Shown here: positions 4,125-63,889 of the stretch, piece after piece
How positions within the stretch are numbered: the first letter of the stretch is position 1
How the letters are laid out: every line of letters begins with the position of its first letter
IMG/VR virus record: IMGVR_UViG_3300046786_000293
Coordinates: 1-64,000 of that record
Direction: 5' to 3' (one strand)
From: a virus
Taxonomy: Duplodnaviria > Caudoviricetes
Length of the DNA: 64,000 bases
Translations under genes and position numbers: made by a program
Notes under the pieces: model-generated
The model's input: only the letters and a program-made list of their open reading frames with translations
Databases searched by the model: none
Told to the model about the DNA's origin: nothing

Positions 4125-4748
4125 TTATTTTGAGGTGCCTACAACTTCTATTTCAACTCGACGGTTTTTAGCACGACCTGCGGCTGTTTTATTGTCTGCT
4201 ATAGGTTGGCGTTCGCCTTTTGAATCTGTATAAACACGAGTCTTTTCAATTCCTCGGGTAACTAAGTAAGCCTTAACCGCCTCTGCTCTTCGACGGCCGA
4301 GGTTCATATTATATGAATCTGACCCTATCGAGTCGGTATGCCCAACAGCAATGATAACTTCAAGAATAAACTCTTTGTTGATTTTTCCGACTAGTCCGTC
4401 TAATACCAGACGACCTTCGGGTTTAAGTACACTCTTATCAAAGTCAAACAAAGTATCAGTGGCGTAAGTTAATTTAACAATCTTAGATGCTTGTGGTTGG
4501 GGAGCCGGTAACGTAGCTACCGGAGTTGGTGCAACTACCGGAGCAGTAAATGTAGCTTGGATGCGGGGAACAGGTTTAATTGCACAATCACAATCAGGAT
4601 GTGTAGTGGCAGGGGTCCAAGAACTATTACGCCAGCATTGTTCTGAAGAGTTTTTCCAAGGTGTATCTGTAGAATTGACCCAATTATTAGTTTGAGCACT
4701 CACTAGGCCTGCACTCACGGCAACAATTGTAGTAATAAGTTTTTTCAT
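4125..4748 (-). CDS. ompA: OmpA family outer-membrane/peptidoglycan-binding protein, Betaproteobacteria type
   Basis: Signal peptide; N-terminal W-K-N...CWR...WTP...CD; Pro/Ala linker; OmpA_C motifs LFDFDKS, VGHTDSIGSDSYNMNLGRRRAEAV, NRRVEI. Confidence 0.92.
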   Translation of the reverse strand: MKKLITTIVAVSAGLVSAQTNNWVNSTDTPWKNSSEQCWRNSSWTPATTHPDCDCAIKPVPRIQATFTAPVVAPTPVATLPAPQPQASKIVKLTYATDTLFDFDKSVLKPEGRLVLDGLVGKINKEFILEVIIAVGHTDSIGSDSYNMNLGRRRAEAVKAYLVTRGIEKTRVYTDSKGERQPIADNKTAAGRAKNRRVEIEVVGTSK

Positions 4749-4780
4749 AGTAAACTATTTATTTGTGTGTTTATTCTATC

Positions 4781-5365
4781 TTACTTTTTTATTCGTTGCG
4801 TTTGATAAACAATTCTGGGATCATTTGCACTACTAGCCCATAGTCCTTTGTCTATGCCCCACTGAATTAGTATAAAAAATATCAGTATAAAAGTAGCAAT
4901 AATTCCTACACCTATAGCAATGTCAGACTGAATTTCTTTTAATTCTTGTTTTTTCTTTTCGCGCATAGTTTTTTCGAATAGTTCTTTACTTTGTGCTAGT
5001 GCTTGTTCTTTTTCCAGTCTAAGGCGTTCTTTCACCATAGCATGATATATCTCACCATTGCCGGACCAGATTAGCAGAGTCTTAATTTCTGCTTCGTCCT
5101 CAATCATCTTTTTTTCTTTTATTGCAACATCTAATGCTCGAGCAGTTAGTTCATAGTAATCCTCTTGTCGGTTTTCCTTCAAGGATTCTCTTTTTTTCTC
5201 TTCAACTTGTCGGCTTTCTTGTTTAATTTGATGCTGGGCGTGAAAGAATTTTGTAAGATCTCCACTCACCTCGTAGATATCTTTGCCCAATTTAATGGCT
5301 TCTTTTACCGTTTTCACACTTGCTTGTGCCATGGCAAAAGCCGCACCAACTGTCAGCGGGTCCAT
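4781..5365 (-). CDS. Coiled-coil protein with C-terminal TM segment
   Basis: Start MDPLTVGAAF; charged helical middle; hydrophobic IAIGVGIIATFILIFFILIQW. Confidence 0.7.
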   Translation of the reverse strand: MDPLTVGAAFAMAQASVKTVKEAIKLGKDIYEVSGDLTKFFHAQHQIKQESRQVEEKKRESLKENRQEDYYELTARALDVAIKEKKMIEDEAEIKTLLIWSGNGEIYHAMVKERLRLEKEQALAQSKELFEKTMREKKKQELKEIQSDIAIGVGIIATFILIFFILIQWGIDKGLWASSANDPRIVYQTQRIKK

Positions 5366-5402
5366 ATTATTATTGTTGTCCTTCCCTGACAGAATATTTA
5401 TC

Positions 5403-5427
5403 AAAAAAAATGGACTCCTAAGAGTCC
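5403..5427 (-). terminator. Terminator at the end of the tmRNA coding piece
   Basis: GGACTC-TTAG-GAGTCC followed by A and T8 on the minus strand. Confidence 0.85.
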
Positions 5428-5651
5428 AATTTGGTTGTTTTGGTTACAAGGTAAGTCCTACCCCGGGTTTGGCACTATTAGGCCAATACAGCCTCGCGAC
5501 GAGCAGAAGCTAGCTTTACGCCTTTTCCGCTGAACTTGAAGCTACCATTTGTAGATGCTTTTGCATTTACTAGATTTATGCGATTAACGTTCGTCATCTA
5601 ACGTGCTGTCCACTCTGTTACTCTTTGCCCTGTCGAAACCATGGCAGGCCC
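5405..5651 (-). ncRNA. ssrA: Permuted tmRNA, coding piece (5' acceptor strand, D-loop, tag ORF)
   Basis: Starts GGGCCTGCCATGGTTTCGACAGGG (typical tmRNA 5' end); TAAAT|GCA resume context; tag ORF 5564-5478 ends in TAA. Confidence 0.88.
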
Positions 5652-5660
5652 ATCATAAAA

Positions 5661-5912
5661 TTACTTAATGTATTTGTTGATAACTTTAATTCCTGCGTAA
5701 GTTCCTAGCACAGTAAACATCATTTTGAATACTGTTGTCCAGTCAGTGGCATTACTTAAAGTTAGTTTAATAGGGCCTGCTTCGATGGAGTCTGTTGTTT
5801 TAGGATGATCTAAAAATTGAACATAATATAACAACAAATCCCAAGCATACTGGCTCAACAGATATATCGCAAACGATATAATAAAACCAGTAAACAAACC
5901 TCTACGATACAT
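5661..5912 (-). CDS. 83-aa two-TM protein inside the tmRNA intervening segment
   Basis: AGGAGA RBS directly after the tmRNA CCA; two hydrophobic segments; stop 9 nt before tmRNA G1. Confidence 0.8.
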   Translation of the reverse strand: MYRRGLFTGFIISFAIYLLSQYAWDLLLYYVQFLDHPKTTDSIEAGPIKLTLSNATDWTTVFKMMFTVLGTYAGIKVINKYIK

Positions 5913-5924
5913 TAAATCTCCTTA

Positions 5925-5990
5925 TGGTGGACCTGGCGGGAGTCGAACCCGCGTCCAGAACACTTTTCTCTTTGCTTCATACAGCAATAA
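5925..5990 (-). ncRNA. ssrA: Permuted tmRNA, acceptor piece (T-arm and CCA)
   Basis: ...GTTCTGGACGCGGGTTCGACTCCCGCCAGGTCCACCA; CAGGTCC pairs with GGGCCTG, giving a G3-U70 wobble. Confidence 0.9.
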
Positions 5991-5994
5991 CTAA

Positions 5995-6000
5995 TATTTA
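5995..6000 (-). promoter_or_regulatory. Putative T4-like late promoter TAAATA driving the tmRNA precursor
   Basis: TAAATA lies between a terminator and the acceptor piece; short motif, so position is the main support. Confidence 0.5.
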
Positions 6001-6005
6001 TCAGC

Positions 6006-6028
6006 AAAAAAGGCTCCGAAGAGCCTTT
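6006..6028 (-). terminator. Rho-independent terminator
   Basis: AGGCTC-TTCG-GAGCCT plus T-run on the minus strand. Confidence 0.85.
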
Positions 6029-6046
6029 GTAGCACACTTGCTGAAA

Positions 6047-6397
6047 TTACTCTGCAACAGCGTCAACGATGGCCTGAGCCTCGGACTTCTTAGAGCGAGC
6101 CTTAATAGCCTCGAGGCTGGGCTTTTCTGCCTTAGACGGCTTACTGACTTTGACAGTCTTAACTTCATTATACTTGGCATCTGCGGCATCGATTGCGGCA
6201 GTGTAACGAGCATCTGCATAGAGCTCAGTAGACTTGAGATAAGTAACCACTGCGGGCTTATCCATAGCCTCGGGCAGTTCGCGAAGCTCAATATCAGTAT
6301 GACCATTCTTGGCCAACACTTTAACACGAGTCATGTCATTGGCGAAACGAACTTTAGCTTCACCTTTGAGAACGGAAAGACCAGCAACTTTAAACAT
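6047..6397 (-). CDS. Conserved phage hypothetical protein with basic Ala/Lys-rich C-terminus
   Basis: 116-aa ORF with GGAG RBS, promoter upstream and terminator downstream. Confidence 0.8.
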   Translation of the reverse strand: MFKVAGLSVLKGEAKVRFANDMTRVKVLAKNGHTDIELRELPEAMDKPAVVTYLKSTELYADARYTAAIDAADAKYNEVKTVKVSKPSKAEKPSLEAIKARSKKSEAQAIVDAVAE

Positions 6398-6462
6398 AAA
6401 ATACTCCTAGAAAAAACAAGTTAGTTGAAAAACTGTTAACATCCATTTGCTAACATATTCAA

Positions 6463-6491
6463 ATTATAGTTGATTTTGGATTTGATGTCAA
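6463..6491 (-). promoter_or_regulatory. Sigma70 promoter
   Basis: TTGACA-17-TATAAT. Confidence 0.85.
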
Positions 6492-6544
6492 CCATTATTT
6501 GAATTCAGGTTTACCAAAATTAATTGGCAGATTCTTTTGAAAAT

Positions 6545-6817
6545 TTAGCCTTCGTAAATGGGACCAAACAGACCCAATTGGTCACAGACATCACCGGCCG
6601 CATCATCGAGACGGTCGGCAATGATTTCTTCTACCACAGTCATATCTTCGCCAACCATTGCTTCCTTGATGATTGTGAAAGCATCCTTCAATAGCAACTC
6701 GGCGAACTTGTAGATATCTACGCCATCTTCCAGGCCGTTTTCGGCATCACGGGCCAGACCGTATTTGTCTACAGTCATCCCGGCCTGTTCGGCCAGTTTT
6801 TCAATTCGTTTGTTCAC
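6545..6817 (-). CDS. MNERI-family protein, copy C (divergent C-terminus, GTG start)
   Basis: MNKRIEKLAEQAG...KFAELLLKD; lacks the HFGVE end. Confidence 0.8.
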   Translation of the reverse strand: MNKRIEKLAEQAGMTVDKYGLARDAENGLEDGVDIYKFAELLLKDAFTIIKEAMVGEDMTVVEEIIADRLDDAAGDVCDQLGLFGPIYEG

Positions 6818-6868
6818 GATTCAACTCCGAAATGTTGTTTGATTATTGGCACCGCATCGTCAACCAAA
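6814..6868 (-). pseudogene. Remnant 3' end of an MNERI-family gene fused to a -35 promoter fragment
   Basis: TTGGTTGACG followed by ...ATCAAACAACATTTCGGAGTTGAATCGTGA (IKQHFGVES*), with no start or middle part. Confidence 0.65.
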
Positions 6869-7042
6869 TTAGGCGTTCTTTTTAGGACGACCACGACCAC
6901 GTTTCGGGGCATCTGCAACCACGGCATTCTGATTGAGTTCAGCCAAACGGCCTGAATAAGCACCTTGCCCGGCTTTGTGGATCAATCCAGTTTGGGTAAA
7001 AGTAACAGTGCCGCCTTTAGAAGTAACAAAACCGTTTTTCAT
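6869..7042 (-). CDS. Small protein with C-terminal AT-hook
   Basis: MKNGFVTSKGG...KRGRGRPKKNA (GRP AT-hook core). Confidence 0.75.
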   Translation of the reverse strand: MKNGFVTSKGGTVTFTQTGLIHKAGQGAYSGRLAELNQNAVVADAPKRGRGRPKKNA

Positions 7043-59370: not shown

Positions 59371-60474
59371 TTATATAGCCGGCAATTCGTCGTAGTCTAA
59401 AGAATCACTCATTACACCGATTACATAATTAGTTGACTCATTTTCTTGTAGTGCTGTTTGTTTTTTACTTGTATCGCTATGCTTATTAAACCAAGGAATA
59501 GGTGTTGTCTTGGGTGCAGTAGCCCAATACTTAATACCAATATCTTTAAGCGCACCAACTGCTGTATAGTCTACAAAGTCTTTAAGAATATTTGCATTAA
59601 GACCAATAACAGGACCTTTCTTGAACAAATAGTCAGCCCATGCTTTTTCTTCGGCAATAACATCACGGTAAATTTGCATAACTTCTTCATGACACTCTTG
59701 TGCCACTCGAGCAAAGCGTGGATCTTCTTTGACTACTTGATTGATTAAGAAAGCAGTCCACCCTTTGTGTAGTAGTTCGTCTTGTAAGATAAGACTAATA
59801 ATGTTGCCGTTACCAATGAAGATTTTGTTCTCAACCATTGCCAGACTTGTAGCAAAGCTAACCATAAAGCGGAAGGCTTCCAAGGCATAACTTGCGTGTA
59901 GAGCCAAATAGATTGCTTTGATGTGTGCTTCTTCGCCTGCCATGTTAGGATCAATTTCTTTATAGCAATTGATCTTGTGTAGGTTGTCATAATGCTTGCC
60001 TACACTACTTGCCATATCAACAATCTCTTTGGTGTCATGAATTGTATTAAACACTTCTTTAGGCACGTTGTAGATGTTGCGAATAATATGACTGTAACTG
60101 CGACTATGAATGTTTGTCTCAAAGAATGTCCAGTTGTAGACCAGGGCTTCTAGTTCTGGCAAACTTACCACTGGTGTAAAAATTTGGCTTGGGCCTCGAC
60201 CTTGCAAACTGTCCAACGCTGTTTGACGTAGTAAGTTTGAAGTAAAAATATGTTTAACCGCATCCGACGCTTCTTTAAAGTCGCCTGCATCTTTTGTTAA
60301 ACTGATTTCTTCAGGTACCCAAAAGAATCCGCGAGCAGTCTTTTCAAAGTCTGCAATTTTATTATATTTTACTTCTTCAAAACGCTGGATAGTAACCGGA
60401 CCTGCAGGATCCAGAAACATTTTACGTGATAAGTAATCTGTTTTAGTGGTTAAGTTATATTGTTCTTTACTCAT
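59371..60474 (-). CDS. nrdB: Ribonucleotide reductase class Ia beta subunit
   Basis: FFWVPEEI, LDSLQGR, ETNIHSRSY, LEAFRF, DELLH, QENESTNY. Confidence 0.97.
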   Translation of the reverse strand: MSKEQYNLTTKTDYLSRKMFLDPAGPVTIQRFEEVKYNKIADFEKTARGFFWVPEEISLTKDAGDFKEASDAVKHIFTSNLLRQTALDSLQGRGPSQIFTPVVSLPELEALVYNWTFFETNIHSRSYSHIIRNIYNVPKEVFNTIHDTKEIVDMASSVGKHYDNLHKINCYKEIDPNMAGEEAHIKAIYLALHASYALEAFRFMVSFATSLAMVENKIFIGNGNIISLILQDELLHKGWTAFLINQVVKEDPRFARVAQECHEEVMQIYRDVIAEEKAWADYLFKKGPVIGLNANILKDFVDYTAVGALKDIGIKYWATAPKTTPIPWFNKHSDTSKKQTALQENESTNYVIGVMSDSLDYDELPAI

Positions 60475-60475
60475 A

Positions 60476-61075
60476 TTATTTCATTTGTATAGGTTTAACT
60501 GGTTTATCAAACGGATCGGGAGCGGCTACAGGATGTCTACCACATGCTCTCTTATTCCCTTGTCCTGCTTCTGTTAAAAACTCTGTGCCTTTGGCAATTT
60601 GACCGATAGGACAGCTACACGTAGCAGTCACAGTTCCATTTGTAGGATCTTTGTCGTATTTACACATCATACCCCAACAATTAGTAGATCCTTCTGCCAA
60701 AGCACCCGGGCAACTTTGAATTTGTGCTTTTGTTGCACTGGGGGGTCGTCTTGCAAAACCGTTTGCTTCTTGCGGGTAGTGAAATCCTTCTACCAATCGA
60801 GGTGCGAATAAACTCCATACTTGTGTGCTAGGATCATCCACGCTACAACTGCCTTTCATAACACCTGCACTTAGATCAGCAATACTAGGCCCTTCGAGTA
60901 CAGGACATTTACACACTACCTCAGGATAAGTAACACCGTTATTGGTAGTAATAGTTTTACCAGTCTTAGTACAAGTACTTGCGGCACATAGTGCAAATTT
61001 ACCTTGACAAATTGTTAATTCGCCGGCAAAAACAGATGAAGATAAGAACGCTAATAATAAAAATATTTTTTTCAT
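60476..61075 (-). CDS. Exported 12-Cys protein
   Basis: Signal peptide; 12 cysteines; lies between nrdA and nrdB. Confidence 0.8.
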   Translation of the reverse strand: MKKIFLLLAFLSSSVFAGELTICQGKFALCAASTCTKTGKTITTNNGVTYPEVVCKCPVLEGPSIADLSAGVMKGSCSVDDPSTQVWSLFAPRLVEGFHYPQEANGFARRPPSATKAQIQSCPGALAEGSTNCWGMMCKYDKDPTNGTVTATCSCPIGQIAKGTEFLTEAGQGNKRACGRHPVAAPDPFDKPVKPIQMK

Positions 61076-61083
61076 GTTATTCC

Positions 61084-63429
61084 TTAAAGTTTACACGATT
61101 CACAATCTTCAACATCATCATAGTCGTCAATGATAGGTGTTTTGATTGTATCCCACATCTTTTGTTCTTCAGTTCTGTTGTCTTGTGATTTGGAACCTTG
61201 CTTGTTGATTAGACTATAATAGAAAGTCTTAATACCCCACATCTGTGCCTGCATTAAATTCTTGGCAATCAATGTAGTGGGTACTTTACGACCTTCAAAA
61301 TGTGCAGGATTGTAGAAAGTATTTGTAGATATACTTTGATCAATGTAGGCCTGTAACACTGCGGCCGTTTTTAGATAACCAACGCAATCAGTTTGATCCC
61401 ACATTAATTGATATTTGTTCTTTAACTTTTGATATTCGGGCACAACTTGAGTAAAACTTCCTGCCTTACTTTCTTTTGTGCTGATTAAACTCATTGGCAT
61501 TTCTATACCGTTGGTGCTGTTAATTACTACGCTCGAGCTTTCAACTGGTGCAACTGCCATAAGGGTAGCGTTGCGAACACCATGCGTTTGCATTTTGACT
61601 CGTAGACCTTCCCAGTCCAGTTCTGGAGCAAAGGATGTGAGTTCATCCACTCCTTTAGATCTGCGTTCCCAAGGAAACACACCTCTACCATACCATGTAC
61701 GGTCACTATCCTTACAGCGACCGCGTTCGGCGGCAAGTTCCACAGTCGCTTCAGTAAGATAGTACGCTTGATGTTCCATCCAGGATTTAACTTCTGCCAA
61801 AGCGTCTGAATTGCCGTATTGGAGTCCACGTTTGGCATGCCAGTAAGCAAGGTTTGTAACACCGATACCCAAGGGTTGAATTTCATCGTTGGATAGTTTG
61901 CTTTGGATCGAAAGGAAGTCTTGGTAGTCAAGGATATTACATAAGGATCTCTGAAGAATGCGACAAGCACGGCGCATATCCTCAGGATTGCGGAACGCTC
62001 CCCAATTAATGGAGCCCAGTGTACAAAGTGCGATGCGACCTTGATCGTCGTCCAGGCGTTTGAAAGGTTTTGTGGGAAGTAGAATTTCACAGCAAAGGTT
62101 ACTCTGGTAGATAGTGTGATACTCAGGATCAAATGGTCCTTGATTCATCACGTTGTCAATAAACACTAGATAAATGCGACCAGTGTCTGTTCGCTCCTTA
62201 AGTATTCCAGATTTGAATACTTCCTCGGCACTCATTACTTTCTTGCGTAGGTCAGTGCGTTTTTCACACTTAACATATAGTTCTTCGAACAACGCTGTAT
62301 TAGAGTAGAAGGCTTCGTATAGGTCTGGTACTTCATTAGGGTCAAAGAAGGTAATATTCTCTTTATTCCTGAAGCGTCTCCAAAAGAATGCAGAAAGCAC
62401 AACACCGTAATCCATGTGTCGTACTCGGGTTTCGTCTGTACCTTGATTGTTCTTGAGCACAATGAGATCATCGAATTGATGATGCCATATGGGATAGAAA
62501 ACCGTAGCACTAGCATTGCGAATACCTCCTTGTGAACAACTACGCAAGTCACCAAACCACTTCTTCAAAAATGGAATCATACCAGTATGCATGATCTCGC
62601 CGCCTCGAATGGGTGATCCCAAAGGACGTAGACGTCCGATCTCTAAGCCAATGCCAGCACGTTTACTGGCATACTTGGCCATCATTTCGCCGCTAGCGAA
62701 TATACTATCCAAATCATCATCACTCCTAATAAGAACGCAACTAGAAAATTGTTTCGTCGGAGTGCCAAGGCCAGCAAGGACAGGAGTAGCAAGAGTAAAA
62801 AGACCATCACTAGCAGCATTATAATATTCCTTAATGTAACGCATACGAGCCGAATTAGGCTCTTCATTGTGGAAAACAGTAGCAGCCGCAATCATATAAC
62901 GTATCTGCGGCGTTTCATAAATTTCTTTAGTAGCACGATTGCGAACTAGATACTTTTCAATAAGTTGTTCAATTGCGGCATAACTGTAGTGCTCGTCTTT
63001 GGTATGATCGAGCAAGTCATTCATTCGATTCCAATCTTCTTGGCTATACCATTCAAGTAATTCCGGAGTATATAAACCAACAGCTACATTCTTTTTTACA
63101 ATATCATAAATGTGTGGAACATCATATGATCCGTAAACGTCTTTTCGCAACATTGATAGACGTTGTTTACCTGCTACATATTGATAATTAATATTACCAA
63201 CATCGGGATTAGATTCTACGTCAATGAGATCGACACAGGCTCTTAGTGTAATTTCGTCGATTTCTTTTGTAGTGATACCATCATAGAAATGTGGTTGCGC
63301 TTTAATTTCAATCATCGATTGACTAACATCTGCAATGCCACCGCATATTTTTGTTATTTGCGCTTGCCACTTCTCGATTGTCAACGGTTCTTTTTTTCCG
63401 GATCTTTTTGTAACTTGAATTATTGTCAT
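61084..63429 (-). CDS. nrdA: Ribonucleotide reductase class Ia alpha subunit with ATP-cone
   Basis: VTKRSG ATP-cone; QFSSCVL; QSNLCCEI; YY; C-terminal CESCKL. Confidence 0.97.
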   Translation of the reverse strand: MTIIQVTKRSGKKEPLTIEKWQAQITKICGGIADVSQSMIEIKAQPHFYDGITTKEIDEITLRACVDLIDVESNPDVGNINYQYVAGKQRLSMLRKDVYGSYDVPHIYDIVKKNVAVGLYTPELLEWYSQEDWNRMNDLLDHTKDEHYSYAAIEQLIEKYLVRNRATKEIYETPQIRYMIAAATVFHNEEPNSARMRYIKEYYNAASDGLFTLATPVLAGLGTPTKQFSSCVLIRSDDDLDSIFASGEMMAKYASKRAGIGLEIGRLRPLGSPIRGGEIMHTGMIPFLKKWFGDLRSCSQGGIRNASATVFYPIWHHQFDDLIVLKNNQGTDETRVRHMDYGVVLSAFFWRRFRNKENITFFDPNEVPDLYEAFYSNTALFEELYVKCEKRTDLRKKVMSAEEVFKSGILKERTDTGRIYLVFIDNVMNQGPFDPEYHTIYQSNLCCEILLPTKPFKRLDDDQGRIALCTLGSINWGAFRNPEDMRRACRILQRSLCNILDYQDFLSIQSKLSNDEIQPLGIGVTNLAYWHAKRGLQYGNSDALAEVKSWMEHQAYYLTEATVELAAERGRCKDSDRTWYGRGVFPWERRSKGVDELTSFAPELDWEGLRVKMQTHGVRNATLMAVAPVESSSVVINSTNGIEMPMSLISTKESKAGSFTQVVPEYQKLKNKYQLMWDQTDCVGYLKTAAVLQAYIDQSISTNTFYNPAHFEGRKVPTTLIAKNLMQAQMWGIKTFYYSLINKQGSKSQDNRTEEQKMWDTIKTPIIDDYDDVEDCESCKL

Positions 63430-63442
63430 TGATATTATTCTC

Positions 63443-63889
63443 TTATTGTAATTTGTCAAGACCTAGATCTTGAACAGTCAGGGTCTTTATTAACTTTAAA
63501 TTTTTGGAAACGTGTGCTTTATTTACAACCTCATCATGAACCAAATTAAGAACATATTTTCCTTTGTCAACAAATACTAAATTATACTGTTCCTTGGTCG
63601 AAGGTTCATTATATACTCTTATTTCAACATCCGGTTGATGGCTACTAAGATATAAAGTATACACTATTCCCAATGCTTTTGCAAGATCACAATAATAGTT
63701 TTCGTATATCAATTCCCATGGCCCGGGCCATTCTTCGATATGATCTGTAGTTAAGTAATGTGCCACGTATGGAGCATAACTCCAAAGATGTGTTGTTTCT
63801 TTAAGTGCTTGCTCAAGTTCTTGTTCGCTGATTTTTTTTCGAAAGTCATGCCAAAAGCGAAGGCGTTCGCTCGGTAGGTGATTCCACAT
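63443..63889 (-). CDS. Conserved phage hypothetical protein
   Basis: WPGPWELIYENYYC; upstream TAAATA. Confidence 0.75.
   Translation of the reverse strand: MWNHLPSERLRFWHDFRKKISEQELEQALKETTHLWSYAPYVAHYLTTDHIEEWPGPWELIYENYYCDLAKALGIVYTLYLSSHQPDVEIRVYNEPSTKEQYNLVFVDKGKYVLNLVHDEVVNKAHVSKNLKLIKTLTVQDLGLDKLQ

Follow-up and report, generated by a model that had tools for sequence, protein, structure and literature searches.

The intervening sequence of a two-piece phage tmRNA gene carries a small gene under purifying selection and appears to be an exchangeable slot for others

Two-piece tmRNAs of the betaproteobacterial type (RF01850 / RF04321) are also encoded by phages (PMC11915505; PMC9004378), and they were found to be common in aquatic phages in a study that made no mention of their intervening sequences (IVSs) (PMC9004378). 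The 2025 tmRNA database, in which phages are represented by 79 sequences only, recorded one tRNA-Ala gene and one repeat element as odd contents of an IVS, and no protein gene (PMC11915505). Our full-text searches of the accessible literature also returned no description of protein ORFs in tmRNA IVSs. The gene described here lies in a window of 64 kb, the whole stretch of DNA that was analyzed, which is the first part of a 338,510-base (338.5 kb) record of a freshwater jumbo phage that is 97% complete according to CheckV. It resembles the known permuted tmRNA genes in the acceptor-IVS-coding order, the T arm, the CCA end, the G1 with the G3:U pair, and the tag reading frame. In the genes as described, however, the IVS is treated as a discarded spacer, whereas here it holds a selected gene led by a Shine-Dalgarno (SD) sequence, and the arrangement recurs with many cargoes.

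The IVS of the 23S rRNA of Coxiella burnetii is likewise a stem-closed spacer in the precursor of a stable RNA, which is excised during maturation and contains an ORF; that spacer is reported to be cut by RNase III, and its S23p ORF to be decaying and seemingly untranslated in vivo (PMC4990558). The ORFs described here, by contrast, have strong SDs and are under purifying selection, and their tRNA-like flanks are presumably processed by RNase P and 3' trimming. Group I introns with homing-endonuclease genes have also been described in tmRNA genes, where they are self-splicing and occupy the T-loop of genes of the standard order (PMC11915505). The likeness to the present gene lies in a protein gene within a tmRNA gene that is removed at the RNA level. 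Such an intron was considered here and rejected: no Rfam intron family was matched in positions 4500-7000 of the window, the insert follows the CCA and not the T-loop, and no nuclease domain was found. Messengers that are co-transcribed with tRNAs and cut out by tRNA-processing enzymes are known from mitochondrial tRNA punctuation and from the bacterial tRNA-tufB operon. In both situations the messenger is delimited by tRNA-like structures whose processing would set its ends, but the delimiters here are the halves of one tRNA-like domain, which pair with each other across the messenger.

ARAGORN identified one permuted tmRNA at 5387-6021 on the minus strand. The Rfam model tmRNA_permuted (RF04321) matched 5537-5986 on the same strand with 104.9 bits, twice the cut-off of 47, and in this alignment the two halves of the tRNA-like domain are separated by a long insert, the IVS, which falls between model positions 86 and 87. 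The features of the unit are as follows.

5993..6003, minus strand: candidate promoter box TGATAAATATT, immediately 5' of the acceptor piece (sequence)
5925..5990, minus strand: tmRNA acceptor piece (RF04321 alignment, ARAGORN, sequence)
5952-5936, minus strand: T arm GCGGG/TTCGACT/CCCGC (sequence)
5935-5929, minus strand: acceptor 3' strand CAGGTCC (sequence)
5928, minus strand: discriminator A (sequence)
5927-5925, minus strand: CCA end (sequence)
5652..5924, minus strand: IVS of 273 nt (RF04321 insert, bounded by CCA and G1)
5917..5922, minus strand: SD sequence AGGAGA, IVS +3 to +8, beginning 2 nt after CCA (sequence)
5661..5912, minus strand: ORF83, 83 aa, 252 nt including the stop (ATG at 5912, TAA at 5663-5661)
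5432..5651, minus strand: tmRNA coding piece (ARAGORN tag, Rfam alignments, sequence)
5651-5645, minus strand: G1, opening the acceptor 5' strand GGGCCTG (pairs with CAGGTCC and contains the G3:U)
5564-5481, minus strand: tag reading frame of 28 codons ending in AVLA (ARAGORN)
5480-5475, minus strand: two tag stops (sequence)
5403..5428, minus strand: intrinsic terminator of the tmRNA unit (terminator scan: stem 5428-5411, then a T run)

The TAA of ORF83 is followed by 9 nt (ttttatgat) and then by G1 at 5651. A first-pass annotation of the same DNA had described an 83-aa ORF over 252 of the 273 IVS nucleotides, with its SD 2 nt after the CCA and its stop 9 nt before G1, and this description was correct to the base. 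The covariance score, the acceptor-before-coding order, the G1-G7 pairing with G3:U and the tag frame place the gene among the permuted two-piece tmRNAs. The tag frame has a resume codon and a hydrophobic tail and is unusually long. The acceptor stem was found with compensatory changes in a relative, being GGGCCTG/CAGGTCC in the window and GGGCTAG/CTAGTCC in L001, with the G3:U kept in both. No SmpB gene was found in the phage, so trans-translation here would need the SmpB of the host. Judged by these sequence features, the phage tmRNA is a working-looking two-piece (circularly permuted) tmRNA. The tag region of the window (5475-5564, minus strand; 28 codons and the two stops) is rich in Lys and Arg up to its AVLA end, and the tags of the relatives L001, L010, L018 and L035 are of a 12-codon ANDD...LAA type. 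About 0.65 kb downstream of the tmRNA unit, a 207-aa secreted protein (4125-4748, minus strand) carries a C-terminal OmpA-family peptidoglycan-binding domain (E = 2.6e-20).

Homologues of ORF83 form 34 clusters of 55-93% identity, the contigs that carry them are as long as 360 kb, and the C-terminal half of the family is near-invariant. Substitutions were analyzed in 18 distinct nucleotide copies from the fetched loci. The window copy differed from the others (17 comparisons) with pN of 0.04-0.34 and pS of 0.44-0.78, the means over all pairs of copies were 0.24 for pN and 0.69 for pS, and dN/dS was 0.05-0.2. In the invariant C-terminal half, pN was 0.01-0.15 and pS remained at 0.5-0.96, and the conservation is therefore at the level of the protein and not of an RNA element. 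The nearest copy to that of the window, L016 at an nrd locus, shares 93% amino acid identity with it, with a dS of about 0.9 and a dN/dS of 0.05. Pairs of copies in the IVS context gave dN/dS of 0.08 (L024), 0.10 (L030) and 0.16 (L001) with dS near 1, so ORF83 is also selected as a protein inside the tmRNA IVS. The homologues and the substitution pattern show that ORF83 is a real gene, under purifying selection, for a small membrane protein. The first-pass annotation had proposed that the IVS is itself a protein-coding gene and that dN/dS across related loci would be a check on it; the values of 0.05-0.2 overall and 0.08-0.16 among the IVS copies, together with the same acceptor-ORF-coding layout and junctions in four further distinct relatives, bore the proposal out.

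The predicted protein has a hydrophobic helix at its N-terminus and another at its C-terminus, and a conserved β hairpin (DSIEAGPIK-TLSN) lies between them. In the AlphaFold2 model (mean pLDDT 75), these correspond to a helix at residues 2-35, a hairpin at 41-52 and a helix at 58-81, in agreement with the two hydrophobic helices noticed at first reading. A profile search of 1.84 billion representatives returned 68 clusters related to ORF83 and no named domain for the family. In the longer relatives (118-249 aa among those read), the hairpin and the last helix form a C-terminal module, which sits after an N-terminal hydrophobic helix and a variable linker. A 773-aa match in the same search was rejected as spurious, since it fell on CHB_HEX_C repeats. 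Pfam matched no family in the window ORF, and the 35 family members yielded nothing beyond sub-threshold matches to unrelated families, none of them to the 23S rRNA IVS protein S23p (PF05635), an identity that was considered for ORF83 and rejected on this ground. The PHROGs and PADLOC searches gave no match, the best ESM Atlas score was 0.84 and below the meaningful level, the best hit of Foldseek with the model against the AFDB clusters and BFVD had an E value of about 1, and tblastn against cultured phages found nothing. The neighbors of ORF83 across phages are nrd, isc or tmRNA genes and not lysis genes. The two hydrophobic helices are compatible with, but not specific to, a holin or a superinfection-exclusion membrane protein, and a holin-like or exclusion role, which had been suggested at first reading, gained no support from the Pfam, PHROGs, PADLOC and Foldseek searches.

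The window phage carries one copy of ORF83 in its 338,510 bases. Among the fetched relatives, the commonest home of the gene was the nrdA|nrdB junction, where its start and stop codons overlap those of the neighbors. The homes found, and the nrd genes of the window itself, are listed below.

nrdA|nrdB junction: L002, L004, L005, L007, L012, L013, L016 and L026-28; L014 shows the nrdB side only
iscU|iscA junction: one lineage, L032-34 (L032:2613-3569)
tmRNA IVS, besides the window: four further distinct relatives, L001 (= L003 = L121), L024, L030/L031 and the divergent L064
ending 1-30 nt before the acceptor piece of a tmRNA with a short IVS: four lineages, L010, L035, L029 and L025
another context: one copy, L009
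61084-63459, minus strand: nrdA of the window (context region 59371..63459)
59371-60474, minus strand: nrdB of the window (context)

The IVS-borne copies in the window and the four relatives have identical junctions, CCA-TA-AGGnnA-TTTn-ATG at the start and TAA-nnTTATGAT-GGGC at the end. The protein tree of ORF83 was too weak to count moves or to tell their direction; in AU tests, the IVS copies as one clade gave p = 0.046, which is borderline, and the nrd copies gave p = 0.17, which is not significant. The cultured Stenotrophomonas phage Marzo carries its tmRNA gene about 530 nt upstream of nrdA, so that the two main homes of ORF83 adjoin in at least some related phages, and a short-range relocation between tmRNA and nrd is plausible. 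On this distribution, ORF83 is a roaming accessory gene that is not specific to tmRNA, a conserved membrane protein gene of jumbo phages that appears to move among a few well-expressed operon junctions (nrdA|nrdB, iscU|iscA and tmRNA). The first-pass interpretation, which saw the protein as possibly co-timed with ribosome rescue, needs amending in that the gene is not tied to tmRNA and in relatives most often resides at nrdA|nrdB. As it also thrives there and at iscU|iscA, its presence in the IVS may be neutral hitch-hiking. In L118, an IscU/NifU_N gene (128 aa, E = 3e-55) was observed inside the tmRNA IVS (405 nt); together with ORF83 between iscU and iscA elsewhere, this suggests that the loci for Fe-S assembly, ribonucleotide reductase (RNR) and tmRNA exchange the same small cargo. 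The upstream-type copy of L010 (2960-3222) starts with MYKRG and shows an in-frame TGA and a frame change before it rejoins the conserved frame, which points either to decay of the copy or to a fault in the assembly. The nrdA|nrdB junction of the window itself holds an unrelated 199-aa Cys-rich ORF (60476-61075, minus strand) with a signal-peptide-like N-terminus and no PHROG match.

The IVS was found to accommodate other genes as well. In G004, a 331-kb relative that keeps ORF83 at nrd, the tmRNA IVS holds an unrelated 101-aa ORF between the same junctions as in the window, with CCA-TAAGGAGATT before the ORF and TTTTATGAT-GGGCC after it. A pattern scan of viral contigs with the query GTCCACCATAAGGNNATT gave 94 matches, 89 of which were permuted tmRNA genes with 66 distinct IVSs, and CCA-TAAGGnnATT was conserved in these 89 viral loci. 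The 66 IVSs were 26-494 nt long, and ORFs of 19-152 aa filled 80-97% of them, starting 4-6 nt after the SD, or about 15 nt after it in one cargo group. Either the TGA within the conserved TTATGA-T served as the stop, leaving 1 nt before G1, or the ORF stopped 9-14 nt earlier. In a few loci no in-frame stop precedes G1, and the ORF continues into the coding piece: L073, L080, L100 and L110, with TTATGTT before G1, and the L112, L137, L054, L101, L134 family. Cleavage by RNase P would turn such an IVS into a messenger without a stop, on which tmRNA naturally acts. The cargo formed about 35 peptide clusters of 19-152 aa, a few of which are probably spurious short frames. Hydrophobic peptides of 19-27 aa were the commonest, and the others were peptides of 35-47 aa with one hydrophobic helix, soluble proteins of 55-152 aa, and one NifU_N/IscU.

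An unbiased scan of viral contigs, keyed on the T arm and CCA only, yielded 77 distinct permuted-tmRNA IVSs. An SD-led ORF that covered at least 75% of the IVS and ended inside it was present in 17 of the 77, compared with 2.3 expected (maximum 7) after shuffling of the interiors, and about 5 more ORFs read through G1. All 9 IVSs of 121 nt or more were filled by an ORF. An SD-like tetramer tracked the presence of an ORF (22/40 vs 2/37, p = 1.6e-6). In five cargo families besides ORF83, most of the variation fell on third codon positions and pN/pS was 0.16-0.24, and in the 24-codon peptides the variable sites numbered 13, 4 and 20 at the first, second and third positions. Non-coding IVSs made up about 70% of the phage permuted tmRNAs sampled. 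The comparison of IVSs across relatives that had been proposed at first reading gave a divided answer: other ORFs do occupy the IVSs of other phages, but many related IVSs are short and non-coding. ARAGORN missed most of the long-IVS loci on which it was run, and therefore Rfam and our own pairing rule were used instead. The scan of genome contigs with the T-arm/CCA pattern returned mostly tRNAs and standard tmRNAs from many phyla and was uninformative on hosts. From the sequences compared, the IVS of this phage tmRNA group behaves as a slot in which many small genes, unrelated to each other, can be exchanged. The IVS proteins of 101-152 aa (L038, L043, L119, L048, L091, L114, L059, L084) fall into several clusters that all start with MRI(K/Q/N/T)(E/D)(L/I), and several of them are preceded by TTGAATAAATACTAG, which may point to a family of cassettes that share one 5' end.

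The two ends of the IVS pair with each other. A stem of about 14 bp in a fixed register is formed by the first ~12 nt of the IVS, together with the CA of the CCA, and the last ~16 nt, as supported by the minimum free energy (MFE) fold, a duplex test and covariation:

5913..5926, minus strand: 5' strand of the closing stem, CA of CCA plus IVS +1 to +12
5654..5667, minus strand: 3' strand of the closing stem, IVS -3 to -16, including the TAA stop and the conserved TTATGAT

Pairing was seen at 13 of the 14 positions in 81-99% of 141 distinct IVSs, and at the outermost one (k=12) in 67%; several positions showed 4-6 pair types, and shuffled partners paired in 42-63%. The duplex energy had z < -2 against shuffles in 91-97% of the IVSs in the two viral-contig scans and was -9 to -19 kcal/mol across the family. 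The MFE fold of the window precursor had a z of -3.66, with the SD, the AUG and the first codons paired. In the window, the stem extends over the AUG to ~5905 and, on the opposite side, to ~5673, into the last codons K-Y-I-K, whose Tyr codon is common to all five IVS-type copies and the upstream-type L025 and L029, the nrd-type copies having Val or Leu. Where the IVS bears an ORF, the SD supplies the 5' strand of the stem, opposite a 3' strand made up of the pyrimidine-rich stop region. The non-coding IVSs of Marzo (AGAGCACTCTT / AAGAGTGCT) and G005 carry the stem too, so the stem is the general feature and the ORF is an add-on. Pairing of the SD and the AUG could mean that translation is weak in the IVS context. 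A ribosome at the start or the stop site has a footprint that reaches into the closing and acceptor stems, so a single molecule should not be translated and folded into the tRNA-like form at the same time.

A TAAATA box was present 70-85 nt upstream of the CCA in 59 of 147 related loci. In L024, L030, L037 and L152, canonical TTGACA-17-TATAAT promoters lie directly upstream of the acceptor piece, where the window has TGATAAATATT, probably a phage promoter box similar to the late promoters of T4. This 11-mer occurs twice on the minus strand, each time behind a terminator-like hairpin: at 5993-6003 it precedes the tmRNA gene, and at 5392-5402 the next gene (4781-5404). A promoter scan of the locus found no sigma-70-like site between the acceptor piece and ORF83. 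The sequence TCAACA-17-TATGAT at 5680-5652 was considered as a separate promoter of the coding piece and rejected, since its -10 element ends 1 nt before G1, so that the start would cut the acceptor stem, and since TTATGAT belongs to the closing stem, as its covarying 3' strand. In RNA-library contigs from three lake metatranscriptomes, ORF83 of an L024-like relative was joined to the start of the coding piece, and one such contig (X15) also spanned the acceptor piece, although these contigs are possibly carried-over DNA. Apparent skips of 258-292 nt in the same analysis were rejected as processing products, because their ~30-nt flanks come from the most conserved parts of tmRNA and also occur in DNA runs; they represent other short-IVS tmRNA genes.

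We consider it probable that the stem-closed IVS loop serves as a gene slot and that its cargo, here ORF83, is translated from the nascent precursor before the tmRNA matures. We infer the following course from the arrangement of the locus. The promoter box, the acceptor piece, the IVS, the coding piece and the terminator would form one transcription unit that gives a single precursor. Ribosomes would bind the nascent precursor while transcription has yet to reach the 3' strand of the closing stem, or else during breathing of the stem, and the formation of the closing and acceptor stems would shut off initiation. RNase P would then cut the tRNA-like fold at G1, the 3' end would be trimmed to the CCA, and the outcome would be two tmRNA pieces and a discarded IVS.

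It is less likely, but still a reading with some claim, that the excised IVS is the messenger, with RNase P and 3' processing freeing a 273-nt monocistronic RNA with a 12-nt leader that is then translated. ORF83 nearly fills the IVS, leaving 2 nt between the CCA and its SD and 9 nt between its stop and G1, and an RNA closed by a stem would have protected ends. In such an RNA, however, the closing stem (a duplex of -9 to -19 kcal/mol across the family) keeps the SD and the AUG paired, which makes a freely translated released mRNA, the first of the two options of the first-pass annotation, less likely than translation of the nascent precursor; moreover, the ORF-bearing 23S IVS of Coxiella is reported to be rapidly degraded and seemingly untranslated (PMC4990558). 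We regard as possible but improbable that translation of the IVS mainly regulates the folding or maturation of tmRNA in the manner of a leader peptide, the peptide itself being secondary; control of maturation was the second option of the first-pass annotation. In its favor, the ribosome footprints at the start and the stop must overlap the closing and acceptor stems, and the stop ends 1 nt before G1 in most family members; but the IVS peptides are under purifying selection, ORF83 is retained outside tmRNA genes, and about 70% of the related tmRNAs mature without an ORF. An untranslated relic or chance frame, conserved through recent transfer out of the nrd locus, would fit the closeness of the window copy to the nrd-context L016 (93% amino acid identity) but hardly the dS already reached between them (~0.9, with dN/dS 0.05), the dN/dS of 0.08-0.16 among the IVS copies, or the retention of the SD and of the junction geometry by five distinct lineages that have the ORF in the IVS. 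Equally implausible is a tmRNA gene killed by the insertion and left as two decaying remnants, for which the odd 28-codon tag ending in AVLA and the lack of a phage SmpB could be cited, against an Rfam score twice the cut-off, acceptor stems with compensatory changes and a kept G3:U, intact tag frames in relatives (ANDD..LAA-type in L001 and L010, for example), a terminator of its own, and the same layout at 89 loci.

Beyond translation from the nascent precursor, it is possible, as a tentative extension, that the IVS is a purpose-built, kinetically gated device, in which the SD is open only during transcription, each precursor gives a small fixed burst of protein, and closure hands the RNA to RNase P. 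Such a device would tie the synthesis of the cargo, often a membrane-active small protein, to the production of tmRNA. As many IVS stops lie 1 nt before the RNase P site or are absent, a ribosome on a cleaved IVS would then be a substrate of trans-translation, and the mature tmRNA could tag the product of its own spacer.

The spacers of stable-RNA precursors are treated as waste, whereas the spacer of this ribosome-rescue RNA appears, from its sequence, to double as a messenger. The slot is not a one-off, since it recurs with exchangeable cargo across many aquatic phages, and the small phage proteins it holds, many of them membrane-targeted, form a class that has stayed hidden from gene callers and tmRNA finders alike. 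It suggests a way for phages to dose small, possibly toxic, proteins, and it offers a clean natural system in which translation competes with RNA folding and processing on one molecule. A handy laboratory chassis for IVS cargo would be phage Marzo (L361, MZ326868.1 70994-71368), whose permuted tmRNA gene, with a stem-closed non-coding IVS of 66 nt, lies in a tRNA cluster.
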